This document shows, piece by piece, positions 21,102 through 25,639 of a stretch of DNA of 64,000 nt. Source of the stretch: an uncultured Clostridia bacterium (lineage in GTDB: Bacteria > Bacillota > Clostridia > Christensenellales > CAG-917). Each line of letters begins with the position of its first letter. The stretch's first letter is position 1. The position numbers were made by a program, and so were the translations under genes. The notes under the pieces were generated by a model. The model made no database searches. It was given only the letters and a program-made list of their open reading frames with translations, and was not told the DNA's origin. The stretch covers positions 72,203 to 136,202 of the forward strand of contig CALABJ010000018.1 of assembly GCA_937885645.1 (NCBI GenBank), given 5' to 3'.

Positions 21102-21494
21102 TAATTTTAGTGCGTAATCCCCTAAGCGCATGTCCCCCTTCCTCACGTGTTTCCCCCTTCTGCCATATGGCAGAGCCCTTCGGGCAGGGCAACACTCGGC
21201 TCTCGCACATTAAGCGACGCCGCCTCATTATGCCACTCGTTGCGTTGGTGCAAAAAGATCACAGCGCACCCGCAACTTCGTACTCTTGTCTGGTGCTCGG
21301 CGCTCCCTTCCTCGTCGCCGCTGCTCCTCGCGTTCCGTCACGCAACATGTGAGTGTTTGTTTAAGAACGCTCCATACAGACTTTTCACCGCAACTCACCG
21401 CAGGTGAATATCACGCACGAAGTGCATATAACTCACGAAGTGAATATAACTTTGCAAAGCAAAATATAACTTGTCTTGCAACGCAAGACAAATA

Positions 21495-21526
21495 AAAAAG
21501 ACACTCAATCGAGTGCCTTTTTTGTT
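21495..21526 (-). terminator. Bidirectional-looking terminator downstream of the MFS gene
   Basis: A-run, then gacactc-aatc-gagtgcc, then a T-run. The hairpin includes one G-U pair. Confidence 0.5.
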
Positions 21527-21540
21527 TCATTTTTCATTTT

Positions 21541-23046
21541 TTAGTCTTCATTTTCATCAGGGAAGGGACATGCTCCTTCACAGTCAACACCACAGGTGCA
21601 GACGGGTTCAAGCTCTTCACCGACAGGTGCTTCTTCCATTGTTTCTTCAACCATTTCTTCTGCGGTTTCTGCGGCTGCCACTTCTTCTGCTTGTTGCTCT
21701 GCAAGTTTTTCTTCCATCTTACGCTTGCGGAGTTTGTCTGCATCAATCATGACAAACACGATAGGAATGATTGCAAGCACTGCGATGATTGCTGCTGCAA
21801 GGAAGATTTCAAAGGGAGGCATATAGTCCACTGATTGATCGTCCATCTTCATAAGGTTGATGATCATTGTGATGAGAGGACCGATGAGCATAGGGAGAAG
21901 CACTGTGAAGCACATTCTCACACCTTGGAATCTGCCTTCGCCACCCTTGGGGATATAGTCTTGGAAGGTTGACATCAAAGCGCCACCGCCTGCAAGAAGT
22001 GCGCCAAGCATAAATGTGCCTGCCACCACAAGGACGTAAACGTAGACGTTTTGAGGCATAAACTTCATAAGGTAGATGACGATTGTTGCTGCGATGACCA
22101 CAAGGACAAGGGGGAGATAGAAGAACTTTCTGCCGTATTTGTCATAGAGGATACCTGTCACAGCGGTGAGGACACCAGCAAGCACGATGACGATTGCAAG
22201 GGGAACGATGAAGTCCTTGACGCCAAGGGTGTTGGTGATGAAGTTGATGAGGTATGAGAAGAAAGTTTGTTGTGAGATGCCAAGGATACAGCTTGCGGTG
22301 AGGCAAACGTAGAGCATCTTATTGTTTTTTATGACGGAAGGACGGAAGCCGTAGAAGGTTTCCTTCCAGTAGTTGGGGTTGCTGTTTTTGATGATGTTGG
22401 GGCTATCCTTCATTGTGAAGATTGCCACAATACCAGCCACAATAGGCAGCACACCGAGGACGATGAAGAATGCCACTGTGTTGCCTGCGTCATAGGTGAG
22501 CATGCCAAGGACAAACACGATGACGAAAGCAAGGATAGAGAAGATTGACATGACGCTGTTGACCTTACCGCGGTTGGTTGTGTCGGTGACGTCAGTGATC
22601 CAAGTGTTGAATGCGGCGTCGTTTGCAGTTGAGCCAAAGAAGGTCATGATGCAGTCGAAGATGACGAGGAATGCTGCAACAATGCCCAAGGTGTTGGCAG
22701 TAGGGGACATAGGGATTGCTGCAAAGAGCATAATGGTGACGCCCCATGCGATATAGCCGTATGCCACAAAGGGTTTACGTTTGCCCACTTTGTCAATGAG
22801 TCCGCCTGCAAAGATAGTGGTTGCGGTTGCGGCGATTGCGCTGAGCCAAATCATCAAAGTGCTGACGATAGTGCCCCAGTCCACGTTGCCCACGTTTGCG
22901 CCGATGTCTTGCGCCATCTTTGCAAAGTACATGTTTTCAACCGACCAAGCAATTTGACCAATCAAGCCGAAGAGGATAGCAGAGAGCCAAACTTTTCCGC
23001 TGAGCTTAGTTGTTTTCACAGTTTGAGTTGTAGGAATATTGCTCAT
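21541..23046 (-). CDS. MFS-type transporter (GPH/sugar-like) with acidic, Cys-containing C-terminal tail
   Basis: 501-aa polytopic protein with about 12 hydrophobic segments. It ends ...EELEPVCTCGVDCEGACPFPDENED. Confidence 0.75.
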   Translation of the reverse strand: MSNIPTTQTVKTTKLSGKVWLSAILFGLIGQIAWSVENMYFAKMAQDIGANVGNVDWGTIVSTLMIWLSAIAATATTIFAGGLIDKVGKRKPFVAYGYIAWGVTIMLFAAIPMSPTANTLGIVAAFLVIFDCIMTFFGSTANDAAFNTWITDVTDTTNRGKVNSVMSIFSILAFVIVFVLGMLTYDAGNTVAFFIVLGVLPIVAGIVAIFTMKDSPNIIKNSNPNYWKETFYGFRPSVIKNNKMLYVCLTASCILGISQQTFFSYLINFITNTLGVKDFIVPLAIVIVLAGVLTAVTGILYDKYGRKFFYLPLVLVVIAATIVIYLMKFMPQNVYVYVLVVAGTFMLGALLAGGGALMSTFQDYIPKGGEGRFQGVRMCFTVLLPMLIGPLITMIINLMKMDDQSVDYMPPFEIFLAAAIIAVLAIIPIVFVMIDADKLRKRKMEEKLAEQQAEEVAAAETAEEMVEETMEEAPVGEELEPVCTCGVDCEGACPFPDENED

Positions 23047-23110
23047 AAGTTTCTCCTAAAATTGTCTTAACACAATAATTTTAGCACAATACTGGGATAT
23101 GTCAATATAG

Positions 23111-23135
23111 AAAAACCACTCAACTGAGTGGTTTT
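23111..23135 (-). terminator. Terminator after tcdA
   Basis: On the minus strand: aaccactc-agtt-gagtggtt followed by a T-run. Confidence 0.6.
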
Positions 23136-23171
23136 CAATCAAATTCGGTAGAATTATCCGCCTATTTTGGT

Positions 23172-23870
23172 CTAGTCAATGAGGACTCTTATCACGTATC
23201 CTGCCAGTTTCAGTCCCGCAATGGCAGGAGGGTAGGATATGCTTGCAGGGATATGCCTGCCTTTTTCTTCCACTTGATACTTAGGTGAAACAGGTGTTTC
23301 CTTTGAGTACACCACGGTGAGAGAGTTTATCCCACGGGCTTTAAGCTCCTTTCTCATCACCTTTGCAAGGGGGCAGACAGATGTCTTTTTTATGTCCGCA
23401 ATCTCAAAATCATCCCCAAGTTTGTTGCCTGTGCCCATTGAACTGACGATATTTATGCCAAGGGCTTTTGCACGGACAATGAGTTCAAGCTTTGCAGACA
23501 CTGTGTCCACTGCATCCACTATGAAATCATAGTTTTCAAGGGGAATAGAGTCCGCATTTTCAGGCAAATAGAAAGTGTCATAGACGTCCACGACGCACTG
23601 TGGATTGATGGACAAAATACGCTCCTTTGCCACCTCAACCTTCTTTTTGCCAATGGTGGAAGTGGTCGCCAAAATTTGGCGATTTAGGTTGCTTTCGTGG
23701 ATGCAGTCATTGTCAAGGACACCAATACGTCCAACACCGGCACGGGCCAGTGCTTCAACAACGTATCCCCCAACACCTCCAACACCAGCCACAAGGACTT
23801 TGGCGTTTTTGAGAGCGGAAAGAGCATCACAGCCTATGAGCATTTCAGTGCGAGAAAAGTTTGTTTCCAT
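23172..23870 (-). CDS. tcdA: tRNA threonylcarbamoyladenosine dehydratase (ThiF/MoeB-like, TcdA)
   Basis: VLVAGVGGVGGYVVEALARAGVGRIGVLDNDCIHESNLNRQ nucleotide-binding region. The start is ambiguous: ATG at 23870 or GTG at 23927, neither with a clear RBS. Confidence 0.75.
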   Translation of the reverse strand: METNFSRTEMLIGCDALSALKNAKVLVAGVGGVGGYVVEALARAGVGRIGVLDNDCIHESNLNRQILATTSTIGKKKVEVAKERILSINPQCVVDVYDTFYLPENADSIPLENYDFIVDAVDTVSAKLELIVRAKALGINIVSSMGTGNKLGDDFEIADIKKTSVCPLAKVMRKELKARGINSLTVVYSKETPVSPKYQVEEKGRHIPASISYPPAIAGLKLAGYVIRVLID

Positions 23871-23947
23871 AGTTTTTACACTTTGTGTAAAGTTTTTTAC
23901 AAAAGAAACTTGCGGTGGGGTTGCCACCGCAAGTGTTTCGTTGATGA

Positions 23948-25639
23948 TTATTCTGCGTCAGTTGCAGGTGCTTCGTCTGCTGCTACTTCTTCAAACACCT
24001 CTTCTGCGGGTGCTTCTGAGTGGCAGGAGCAAGTGCAAGTTTCGTCGCAGTTTTCGTCACAGTCACAGGTGCATTCACCGTCTGCGCAGTCACAACCGCA
24101 GTCGCAAGTGCATTCACTGAGTTCTGCACCGCTGTCACGGAGTCTGATTTCTTCACAGATTCTGTCGTATTCCACTTCATCGATCTTGAACTTCTTCATA
24201 TAGAGGATGAATGATGAAAGGATGAAGAGGATGGGGAATACTGCCATACAAACAATAACCCACTGTGCGGTGTCAGGGTTTGCTGTGCCGAGAATGCCGT
24301 TGATGTTTTCAAGCATAACTTCTTCACTGATATGACCTGTTGCGTTGAGTTGTGTTTGCTCAGAGATTTGTTTTGCAAGGAGGTCGATGCCGAGAGCGAT
24401 GAGAGCCACGGTTTCAATTGCCTTGACGATTGATGAGCCCATCTTTGCCATGAAGGGACGGACTGCGAAGATAATGCCTTCGTCACGACGGCCAGTCTTG
24501 ATGTCGTTGTATTCGATGGTGTTTGAAACTGAGATAGTGAGCACTTGATAGTAGAGTGCTTGACCAAATGATGCGATTGCACCGCAAAGACCGATGAACA
24601 CAAATGAAACCATGCTTTCTCTTGCGCCGTCAAATGCGCCGGTGACAAGGGCGAGGATGAGCATAAGTGCATATCCAGCCACAACCGTTGACACGCAAAT
24701 CTTTGCAAGTTGTTTTCTGGTCAGTTTCTTTGACAGGATAGGGTAGAACACGATGATTGCCATTGAAATACCGGTGAGGATTGAGAAGATGGTGCAAAGT
24801 GTGCCCTTATAGCCAAAGCGGAGATACACCCAGTAGGTGTAGAGTGAGTTCATGATTGCACTGCCAACGTTGTAGAGGAGCATTGAGCCTGCGGTGACAA
24901 GAAGTTGGTCGTTTTTGAGGACGACTTTGAACATTGCACCAAGACCACGCTTGTCTTTGTTTTCTGCAGTGACAGGGGGGAGGGGTTTTTCCTTGACAAC
25001 ACAGCAAGTCATAACTTGGCATGCAGCAAAGAGGACGCAAACCACACAAGCAATGATTTGATATGCAGTTTGAGTGTTGCCACCGAGAGCGGTTTCACCT
25101 GCTGTAAGTGTGGGGATAAGGATGACGCAAAGACCTGCACCAATACCAGCACCAACGTTTGCGATGGTGGACAGATTGTTTCTGTCGGTGGGATGTGAGG
25201 TGAGCGAAGGCATCATGCCCCAGTAAGAGATGTCGTTCATCGTGTAGGTGACGCCCCAGAGGAGATAACCAAATGCGAAGAAGATGACGTAGCTTGAGCC
25301 TTGGAGAGGCACGAAGAACAGGAGCAAAATGATTACGATGTTAGAGAAGCATCCTGCCAAAATCCAAGGTTTGAACTTGCCGATCTTGGTGCGAGTTTTT
25401 TCGATGAGCATGCCCATGAAGGGGTCGTTGCATCCGTCGAAAATTCTGCACACGATGAAGATGATGCCCACTGCTGCGTATTCTGCAGTGGTCAATCCTT
25501 TTGTGAAGAGGATAAACAGGGTGAGGTAGGTGTTGACAAGAGTATAGGTCATGTCACGGCCGATACCACCGAGTGAATATCCCCAAAGGTTGCGCTTTGA
25601 AAGTCTTTCGACTCCAGGTGAGGCTGTAAGTGTTGCCAT
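23948..25639 (-). CDS. Glycoside-pentoside-hexuronide (MelB-like) cation symporter with Cys-rich C-terminal tail
   Basis: 563 aa. GPH-like N-terminus (LSKRNLWGYSLGGIGRDM..., DGCNDPFMG) and about 12 TM segments. The tail contains CTCDCGCDCADGECTCDCDENCDETCTCSCH. Confidence 0.8.
   Translation of the reverse strand: MATLTASPGVERLSKRNLWGYSLGGIGRDMTYTLVNTYLTLFILFTKGLTTAEYAAVGIIFIVCRIFDGCNDPFMGMLIEKTRTKIGKFKPWILAGCFSNIVIILLLFFVPLQGSSYVIFFAFGYLLWGVTYTMNDISYWGMMPSLTSHPTDRNNLSTIANVGAGIGAGLCVILIPTLTAGETALGGNTQTAYQIIACVVCVLFAACQVMTCCVVKEKPLPPVTAENKDKRGLGAMFKVVLKNDQLLVTAGSMLLYNVGSAIMNSLYTYWVYLRFGYKGTLCTIFSILTGISMAIIVFYPILSKKLTRKQLAKICVSTVVAGYALMLILALVTGAFDGARESMVSFVFIGLCGAIASFGQALYYQVLTISVSNTIEYNDIKTGRRDEGIIFAVRPFMAKMGSSIVKAIETVALIALGIDLLAKQISEQTQLNATGHISEEVMLENINGILGTANPDTAQWVIVCMAVFPILFILSSFILYMKKFKIDEVEYDRICEEIRLRDSGAELSECTCDCGCDCADGECTCDCDENCDETCTCSCHSEAPAEEVFEEVAADEAPATDAE

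Follow-up and report, generated by a model that had tools for sequence, protein, structure and literature searches.

We analysed a window of 64,000 nucleotides (C18:72203-136202, that is, on contig C18) from the 1.5 Mb genome (30 contigs, 45% GC) of an uncultured Clostridia bacterium, whose closest named relatives are metagenome-assembled genomes of uncultured gut and rumen Clostridia, several of which bear the label Christensenellales or Christensenellaceae. Three genes lie in a row on the minus strand of the window: a carrier of the GPH family, a ThiF-family, TcdA-like gene and a carrier of the MFS_1 family. Both carriers end in acidic C-terminal tails that bear cysteine (Cys)-rich modules, an array of 12 Cys in the GPH carrier and a motif of four Cys in the MFS_1 carrier. 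With slightly better than even confidence we propose that these tails are metallothionein- or phytochelatin-like modules and may form a distributed, membrane-proximal buffer or store for Zn(II)/Cu(I), carried partly on abundant proteins.

The GPH gene (23948..25639, minus strand) is an open reading frame (ORF) for a MelB-like cation:sugar symporter of 563 aa, which matches Pfam MFS_2 and TIGR00792 and has MelB as its best PDB match by both sequence and fold. Its C-terminal end reads ...LRDSGAELSE-CTCDCGCDCADGECTCDCDENCDETCTCSCH-SEAPAEEVFEEVAADEAPATDAE. The Cys array CTCDCGCDCADGECTCDCDENCDETCTCSCH (residues 510-540; 24020..24112, minus strand) comprises 12 Cys and one His and is predicted with a local distance difference test score (pLDDT) of <50. 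All 12 Cys fall within the 30 residues 510-539, CTCDCGCDCADGECTCDCDENCDETCTCSC, which are followed by the His and then by SEAPAEEVFEEVAADEAPATDAE, the acidic, E/A/P-rich end of the protein (residues 541-563; 23951..24019, minus strand) that closes with ...ATDAE. An earlier, sequence-only reading of this DNA had reported two carrier ORFs at these coordinates, the GPH protein with 12 Cys in 30 residues in C-x-C spacing followed by an E/A-rich stretch, and this is confirmed exactly. At the proteome Cys frequency of 1.45%, the chance of finding 12 Cys in a given 30-residue segment is ~6e-15. Two local duplications of 12 nt lie within the array. The acidic end varies in length among orthologues through in-frame indels, and its terminal ...(T/A)DAE is retained.

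The MFS_1 gene (21541..23046, minus strand; 501 aa; Pfam MFS_1 3.3e-29) encodes a protein that ends ...EEAPVGEELEPVCTCGVDCEGACPFPDENED. A cytoplasmic K/R patch and an E/A-rich linker (residues 435-481; 21604..21744, minus strand) lead to VCTCGVDCEGACPFPDENED, within which lies the conserved Cys motif VCTCGVDCEGACPF (residues 482-495; 21562..21603, minus strand; recognized by conservation among orthologues, pLDDT <50). The E/A-rich linker and Cys motif that had been noted at the end of ORF 21541-23046 are thus both found, the latter in the region of VCTCGVDCEGACPF. The motif has four Cys, spaced CxCx3Cx3CP, and no His. Four Cys in 12 residues are not rare on their own (~2e-5 per segment of that length). 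VCTCGVDCE[G/D]ACPF is invariant, save for its E[G/D], in nine cluster representatives (P0121-P0129, 77-97% identity), and the linker in front of it differs in length and sequence between orthologues that share the motif. More distant forms read VC[TN]CGE[ED]GC[NS]CP[FC]DC and TCNCTDCVCEN, and the orthologues P0133, P0160 and P0162 show CxCx4CxCx3C or CxCx4CxCxCxC. Many MFS_1 orthologues at 78-79% identity are wholly without a tail.

Cys-rich tails are present in 37 of the best 120 GPH homologues and in 13 of the best 120 MFS_1 homologues. The assemblies with tailed homologues are numerous and independent of each other, with ENA, Logan, JGI and NCBI as their sources. When the codons of five GPH orthologues (57-92% identity in one comparison, 57-94% in another) are aligned, all indels keep the frame. 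Cys occupies 13 columns in at least four of the five sequences and, since both TGC and TGT are used in 11 of these 13, it is the amino acid that is conserved and not the DNA. Both ORFs end in TAA, with terminator-like hairpins no more than 15-20 nt downstream. The one 3' of the GPH stop codon resembles an intrinsic terminator (23908..23934, minus strand; 11-pair stem with 7 GC pairs, then a T run), and the one 3' of the MFS_1 stop codon has a 13-pair stem followed by a T run (21494..21523, minus strand). An origin of the tails by mis-assembly or frameshift is ruled out by their recurrence in many assemblies, by the terminators after both stops and by the kept frame; selenocysteine read-through is ruled out by the TAA codons. 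The sequence-only reading would have been undone by orthologues that lack the tails and by mis-assembled frames, and this is not what the comparison found: orthologues from many assemblies have in-frame tails with synonymous changes of Cys codons. Judged from these alignments, both tails are translated and under purifying selection on Cys.

The composition of the tails was surveyed in 34 tail-bearing GPH orthologues. They are 55-84 residues long, with 9-21 Cys (14-29%) and 30-40% Asp plus Glu, and together hold 308 CxC, 41 CC and 4 CxxC. The intervening residue of CxC is D (100), G (67), T (64), E (32) or H (19), and also S, N, P or Q, and is never basic or hydrophobic. The array of the window itself contains no aromatic residue, and a few orthologues show TFEDG or EYC. 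The description of the tails as CxC thiolate arrays of metallothionein type is borne out by the number of CxC motifs and the Cys content. The near absence of CxxC relative to CxC (4 versus 308) argues against zinc-ribbon sites and against another possibility, that the Cys motifs, above all CxCx3Cx3CP of the MFS_1 carrier, hold a [2Fe-2S] or [4Fe-4S] cluster. The Cx3CP ending does recall the ferredoxin motif, CxxCxxCx3CP, and the host is an anaerobe rich in Fe-S enzymes, with ferredoxin-type motifs appearing in the genome scan. However, the tails are disordered, highly acidic and without a match to any Fe-S domain, and 12-21 Cys are far beyond what a cluster needs. We regard Fe-S ligation as very improbable and as the least likely of the functions that had been listed for the tails; tethering of the carrier, also on that list, finds no support.

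No NCBIfam or Pfam model covers the tails. A phmmer search with the tail alone against 1.84 billion representatives returned one orthologue fragment and chance matches to repeat proteins, composition correction making this search uninformative for low-complexity tails. A word-based search with the tail region against 5.8 billion clusters found GPH orthologues only, so that a shared or mobile module is excluded. When tails of different genes from the genome are compared, blastn-short detects only chance 14-nt matches. Exchange of a 3'-end cassette between genes is ruled out, as the tails share no DNA beyond these 14-mers. In more distant homologues of either carrier, the corresponding position is taken by an acidic tail devoid of Cys. 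Because the tails lack DNA homology to each other and are found in no other protein family, we conclude that the Cys modules arose within pre-existing acidic tails, separately in each protein, with small local duplications involved.

Such an origin raises the question of whether the arrays are a functionless low-complexity expansion, produced by slippage in TGY-GAY-type repeats within acidic tails and tolerated but unused. The Cys-free acidic tails of ancestral homologues at the same place, the 12-nt duplications and unit-sized indels in the array and the frequent gain and loss are all in line with this. However, the Cys columns persist down to 57% core identity with synonymous codon turnover, and the MFS_1 motif is invariant inside a diverging linker. 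Cys is, moreover, a costly and reactive residue, yet it makes up 14-29% of the 34 tails, with a very restricted set of residues in between. As a change from D to C needs two base changes, the arrays cannot drift from poly-acidic tracts alone. Taken together, we consider an expansion without function improbable.

The tails are not confined to the two carriers. In a whole-genome scan for Cys-dense segments, followed by homologue searches in relatives, the acidic CxC style was seen on four further proteins of the genome. These are a 249-aa membrane protein without a Pfam match (tail ...TCDCAHCDCCCHEEPALEEAAADEE; C18:17220-17969, plus strand), a GldA-like dehydrogenase of the Fe-ADH family (tail ...YGCDCDCGCH; C18:160442-161632, minus strand), a 223-aa soluble protein without a Pfam match (tail ...ACDCDDDDCDCHHHDCDDDCDCHHHHHDQQ; C3:4094-4765, minus strand) and a CPC-type, CopA-like P1B ATPase (linker ...CDCGDVNCGCCEDEHNDCYCDDHH...; C20:8891-11539, plus strand). 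We call the 223-aa protein HEAT-like from its helical appearance only. The ATPase carries two HMA domains, one N-terminal and one C-terminal, the latter preceded by the Cys/His/Asp-rich linker CDCGDVNCGCCEDEHNDCYCDDHHEARCDDHCSCHNDHHEDH. Among the genomes searched, this linker is confined to G000, G006, G005 and G002; the other relatives, like outgroup orders, have a plain one. The tail-bearing proteins span 223-882 aa, so that the Cys modules are extensions or linkers and not small stand-alone proteins. A search of homologues and of the rest of the genome, which had been suggested as a check, has thus recovered tails in orthologues of both carriers and a similar style on four further proteins. 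A transporter-specific role, implied by the first description, is weakened by these four proteins and by the close orthologues of both carriers that lack tails.

The distribution of the modules was tabulated for 12 genomes of the genus, some of them incomplete, as the number of Cys per module on the GPH carrier, the MFS_1 carrier, the 249-aa membrane protein, the GldA-like dehydrogenase, the HEAT-like protein and the ATPase linker. In this order the counts are 13, 4, 7, 4, 7 and 10 in G000, 14, 4, 7, 4, 4 and 10 in G006, and 15, 4, 7, 4, 8 and 9 in G005. G002 has 16 Cys on the GPH carrier and 5 in the ATPase linker, with none on the MFS_1 carrier or the HEAT-like protein. G011 has 17 on the GPH carrier and 5 on the MFS_1 carrier, and G010 has 18 on the GPH carrier, its MFS_1 gene being cut by a contig end; in both, the HEAT-like protein has none. 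For these three genomes no homologue of the 249-aa protein or of the GldA-like enzyme was found. The remaining two tailed genomes show another pattern: G007 lacks Cys on both carriers and in the ATPase linker and has 5, 6 and 12 Cys on the 249-aa, GldA-like and HEAT-like proteins, and G009, with its GPH gene cut by a contig end and no Cys on the MFS_1 carrier, has 5, 7 and 15 on the same three. Of these eight genomes, the ATPase search covered G000, G006, G005, G002 and G007. Finally, no Cys modules occur on the homologues present in G001, G003, G004 and G008, where some homologues are missing, among them that of MFS_1 (none at E <= 1e-60). From this mosaic presence over six proteins, the Cys-tail trait is labile, independent of the host protein and concentrated in sub-lineages of one genus.

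Two observations made in the same scans stand apart. The raw DNA pattern TGYNNNTGYNNNTGYNNNTGY, run in the genome and 40 relatives, gave mostly out-of-frame matches and is unusable for counting CxC tails. It is 5-10x commoner in G000, G002, G005, G006, G010 and G011 than in G001, G003, G004 and G007-G009, a difference not seen with a reversed control, again with most matches out of frame; this split in composition within the genus coincides with the clade bearing the GPH tail. Moreover, a J-domain/TPR-like protein of 215 aa (C16:41054-41701, minus strand) carries a hydrophobic, CC-rich tail, NCCTVCQALWCADCCCECMGGDCIRCC, unlike the acidic CxC style, and a nearby ORF of 105 aa (C16:39605-39922, minus strand) ends GNGCCCGQG.

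As to the carriers themselves, the GPH protein matches Pfam MFS_2 (PF13347) at 1e-60 (205.9 bits, cut-off 27) and TIGR00792 at 276.3 bits, above the cut-off of 231.35. With the MelB equivalog NF007749 (melibiose:sodium transporter) it scores 241.7 bits, under the cut-off of 456. We assign it on sequence grounds to the GPH family (TC 2.A.2), without an assignable substrate. Its closest solved structure is Salmonella MelB (2e-41 by sequence, 2e-15 by Foldseek), and the top five Foldseek matches of its AlphaFold2 (AF2) model are all MelB structures (E 2e-15 to 4e-14; target-normalised TM-score 0.70-0.84). The core of 12 transmembrane (TM) helices (residues 20-487; 24179..25582, minus strand) coincides with the Pfam stretch and is modelled with a mean pLDDT of 84.1 and a predicted TM-score (pTM) of 0.79. 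In the alignment with MelB, RIFDGCNDPFMG pairs with RIWDAINDPIMG and YTMNDISYW pairs with YTIMDIPFW. The cation site of MelB consists of the Asp/Asn/Asp of helix II (D55, N58, D59) and D124 of helix IV. Its D/N/D (CRIFDGCNDPFMG) and the D of YTMNDISYW are kept in the GPH protein, where D68, N71, D72 and D136 are invariant in 38 homologues. Because these residues of helices II and IV are conserved, the protein is most likely a functional cation-coupled symporter. After the last TM helix follows a predicted cytoplasmic helix (residues 488-508, ...EVEYDRICEEIRLRD...; 24116..24178, minus strand; AF2 helix H488-508), whose motif YMKK[FY]KIDE..Y..IC.EI is kept in GPH homologues with and without Cys tails.

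The second carrier matches Pfam MFS_1 (PF07690) at 102.3 bits (cut-off 33.4) and is modelled with 12 long helices (mean pLDDT 80.5, pTM 0.79). Its match to Sugar_tr is marginal (23.2 bits, cut-off 22.3), that to MFS_2 falls short (18.8 bits, cut-off 27), and no NCBIfam match exceeds its cut-off. Of the two carriers, both of which the sequence-only reading had called sugar-type, the GPH protein deserves the name by its MFS_2 and TIGR00792 matches, whereas the second is an MFS_1 protein for which Sugar_tr and MFS_2 are marginal.

TM12 of MelB aligns with residues 456-487 of the GPH protein, and K/R patches follow the last TM helix of both carriers. On the strength of this homology and of the K/R patches, we place both tails in the cytoplasm, a reducing compartment that would keep their thiols free. 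The AF2 model of the GPH protein gives residues 509-563 a pLDDT of <50 and no secondary structure. In that of the MFS_1 protein, the linker forms a helix of fading confidence and residues 462-501 fall below the same value. Neither model docks the tail on its own carrier. As modelled, the tails are unstructured without ligand, as is expected for a metal-free metallothionein.

In the metal-buffer reading, both gene products would function as secondary carriers, one a GPH sugar symporter coupled to Na+/H+ and the other an MFS_1 carrier, and each cytoplasmic C-terminus would be a disordered acidic spacer bearing a thiolate module, the 12-Cys CxC array in one and the 4-Cys CxCx3Cx3CP in the other. 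The reduced thiolates, aided by Asp, Glu and His, would close around ions of soft or borderline metals, most likely Zn(II) or Cu(I), and so build metal-thiolate clusters on the cytoplasmic side of the membrane. Since at least six unrelated proteins of the genus have acquired or lost such a module independently, with numbers varying from 4 to 21 Cys, thiolate capacity would be the selected property and not a function tied to sugar transport. A generic chemical property is also suggested by the constrained composition and free length of the tails and by the range of their hosts, which include carriers, an enzyme, a soluble protein and a metal pump. Soft-metal chelation best explains the alternation of Cys with acidic residues. 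We infer metal binding, the identity of the metal and the buffering role from the CxC arrays.

Evidence from within the genome is consistent with this proposal. The CxC style (CDCGDVNCGCCEDEH...) adjoins a metal-binding HMA domain in the genome's own P1B ATPase and also ends the GldA-like enzyme, which belongs to a family that is Zn-dependent. In a codon-adaptation proxy, based on a crude ORF set and a 10-gene reference, the GPH, MFS_1 and GldA-like genes reach the 92nd, 91st and 97th percentiles, similar to GroEL and DnaK, with the tail-less GPH paralogue at the 64th and the tcdA-like gene at the 19th. The high values of the three tailed genes fit thiolate capacity placed on abundant proteins.

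The metal-binding reading is also supported by published analogues. In bacteria, ribosomally made (Glu-Cys)20 (EC20) that is attached to membrane anchors binds Cd, Hg, Zn, Pb, Cu and Ni (PMC4611968), and SlyD has a Cys/His tail to which Ni and Zn bind (PMC3292732). The plant P1B ATPase HMA4 depends for its function on a di-Cys tail with nanomolar affinity for Zn (PMC6255694), and cooperative folding of short CxC motifs around four Cu(I) ions, as Cu4S6 clusters, is known from Mac1 (CXCX4CXCX2CX2H) and dMTF-1 (PMC4992176, PMC2396432). With metallothioneins and EC20 the tails share a high Cys content dominated by CxC, Cys alternating with acidic residues, the lack of structure without metal and an array, in the window, free of aromatic residues. 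They differ in being natural C-terminal extensions of 500-aa carriers without a metallothionein match in Pfam, for which metal binding is predicted. Like SlyD, H. pylori HspA and related metallochaperones, they are unstructured tails rich in Cys, His, Asp and Glu, of lineage-variable length, on an unrelated folded protein, and CxCH-type endings as in this class are found on the GPH (...CSCH) and GldA-like (...CGCH) proteins. However, their hosts are secondary carriers and metabolic enzymes and not chaperones, and the tails are dominated by Cys, with far fewer His. HMA4, like the Cys-rich N-terminus of ZntA, is an example of a membrane transporter with a cytoplasmic Cys-rich tail, to which the linker of the CPC-type ATPase in our genome is comparable. 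HMA4, though, transports the metal of its tail and uses CC, whereas the carriers here are MFS proteins for sugars or organic solutes and their tails use CxC (308 versus 41 CC).

Several points weigh against a distributed metal buffer. A Pfam search with five different tails at E<=10 returned no family, including no metallothionein family. The 249-aa membrane protein, the HEAT-like protein and the ATPase are only average in codon adaptation, which leaves the idea of abundant scaffolds incomplete. We know of no metal requirement of sugar carriers, and so acidic a context is uncommon in classical Cu(I)-thioneins. In four genomes of the genus no tails occur at all and the SmtA-type metallothionein (PF02069) is absent from the 14 genomes searched, so that the function appears dispensable and the tails do not alternate with a classical metallothionein. 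Finally, in the MFS_1 motif the non-Cys residues V, T, G, P and F are conserved like the Cys, pointing to a defined site or partner instead of thiolate capacity in bulk.

This last point leads to a regulatory sensor, in which the tail would act as a metal- or redox-operated switch: on binding Cu(I) or Zn(II), or on oxidation, the disordered tail would collapse into a cluster and thereby alter transport rate, oligomerisation or turnover of the carrier, in the manner of LacS IIA. Apart from the conserved residues of the MFS_1 motif, it draws on the MFS_1 variant VCTCGEEGCNCPFDC (CxCx4CxCx3C), whose spacing resembles that of Mac1 REP, CXCX4CXCX2CX2H, and on the short CxC motifs that act as all-or-none Cu(I) sensors in Mac1 and dMTF-1 (PMC4992176, PMC2396432). 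The likeness to the REP of Mac1 and to Drosophila MTF-1 lies in short CxC motifs within disordered regions, the spacing of the MFS_1 variants P0133, P0160 and P0162 coming near to the REP but without its His. These two are, however, eukaryotic transcription factors, the motif of the window is CxCx3Cx3C with four Cys and no His, and no homology is implied. C-terminal regulatory domains are known in GPH carriers (LacS-IIA, PMC8154325), Ni uptake in H. pylori is under protein-level control by SlyD (PMC7840056), and the GPH tail directly follows a conserved cytoplasmic helix. LacS/RafP-type carriers belong to the same family and have a hydrophilic cytoplasmic C-terminal extension, which in LacS modulates the carrier (PMC8154325). 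The extension of LacS is, however, a folded IIAGlc-like phospho-domain, and the tails here are disordered, Cys-rich and acidic, 55-84 aa in length, and without a relation to the phosphotransferase system. The IIAGlc-like extension of LacS comprises ~160 aa. Against a sensor stand the same tails on the GldA-like, HEAT-like and 249-aa membrane proteins, the close orthologues of both carriers without tails, the two-fold variation of Cys number inside the GPH clade, the lack of docking of either tail on its carrier in the AF2 models and the lack of a known link between sugar uptake and metal status. We therefore consider a dedicated sensor unlikely. A combination of both ideas is somewhat more doubtful still: a sub-lineage of Christensenellales-like gut Clostridia without a dedicated metallothionein might run a "distributed metallothionein" by repeatedly grafting thiolate tails onto whatever proteins it has available, and the tails on the two carriers, likely the most abundant ones, would in addition serve as switches, operated by Cu(I)/Zn(II) or by redox state, through which sugar uptake is tied to metal status.

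The tails might also work by metal-free thiol chemistry, as a sacrificial or reversible buffer against O2, reactive oxygen species and electrophiles or as a disulfide switch, thereby shielding the membrane proteins of a strict anaerobe while it is exposed to oxygen. In favour of this, the host is a gut anaerobe with a small genome, closely packed reduced thiols react readily, the tails are found in particular lineages and can be dispensed with, and metallothioneins also act as antioxidants. However, strict CxC spacing, D/E/H neighbours and a terminal CxCH are typical of metal ligation and unneeded for scavenging, and the same style adjoins an HMA domain in a metal ATPase; on balance we hold this explanation to be quite unlikely. 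Even less can be said for the tails as substrates of Cys-modifying enzymes, namely thiooxazole formation by MNIO, azolines made by YcaO or radical-SAM thioethers. MNIO (PF05114) and YcaO (PF02624) are absent from the genome and 12 relatives, with positive controls and no search made for radical-SAM maturases, and such enzymes act on small leader-bearing peptides and not on the tails of 500-aa carriers, which makes modification extremely improbable.

Cys-rich metal-binding tails as such are already known from SlyD, HspA, HMA4 and ZntA. On GPH/MFS solute carriers we found no report of them: our literature search yielded no description, a 2026 review of bacterial glycoside transporters is silent on the matter, and no paper was found that joins Christensenellales with cysteine-rich. 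This agrees with the sequence-only reading, which knew of no such tails on GPH/MFS carriers, and with their lack of a Pfam or NCBIfam model. Bacterial metallothioneins are few and are viewed as stand-alone proteins. In the present genus-level lineage, made up of abundant but uncultured anaerobes of gut and rumen, metallothionein-like tails under selection occur on as many as six unrelated proteins, two of which are nutrient carriers that are probably highly expressed. If the tails bind metal, a genome could encode metal buffering not just in a dedicated gene but also in C-termini, as a portable property, the cytoplasm would have a source of Zn/Cu capacity that is invisible to annotation pipelines, and the tails would represent natural, compact metal-binding tags that work on membrane proteins. 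Should the tails of the two carriers also act as switches, this would be transporter regulation of a kind not described for GPH/MFS carriers. The mosaic of gain and loss within the genus constitutes a natural experiment in which the presence of tails could be set against host, diet or metal exposure.

The gene between the two carriers (23172..23927, minus strand) has a clear ThiF domain (Pfam ThiF 1.9e-39), and its likely start is M20 (nt 23870), as in orthologous loci, to judge from the L002 orthologue. Its best NCBIfam match is NF011696 (TcdA, tRNA ct6A37 synthase) with 129.1 bits, under the cut-off of 304. Thus, a ThiF-family gene does lie between the carriers, as had been claimed, but its naming as tcdA falls below the cut-off of the TcdA model (129 versus 304 bits). 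A strong promoter-like site upstream of the MFS_1 gene (23078..23105, minus strand) reads TTGACA-16-TAAAAT, with 11/12 matches and an extended TG. The gene order rlmL-like / dtd / GPH / tcdA-like / MFS_1, convergent with metA and metY, is kept at 92, 74 and 61% GPH identity, and both tails are present in these syntenic loci. In the loci L006, L007 and L013 (53-55% GPH identity), an extra gene of ~450 aa separates GPH from tcdA-like, the locus is without an MFS_1 gene and the GPH tails are acidic and Cys-free. Finally, the genome encodes a second GPH paralogue (C16:19451-21055, minus strand; 40% identity), which has a short acidic tail without Cys.

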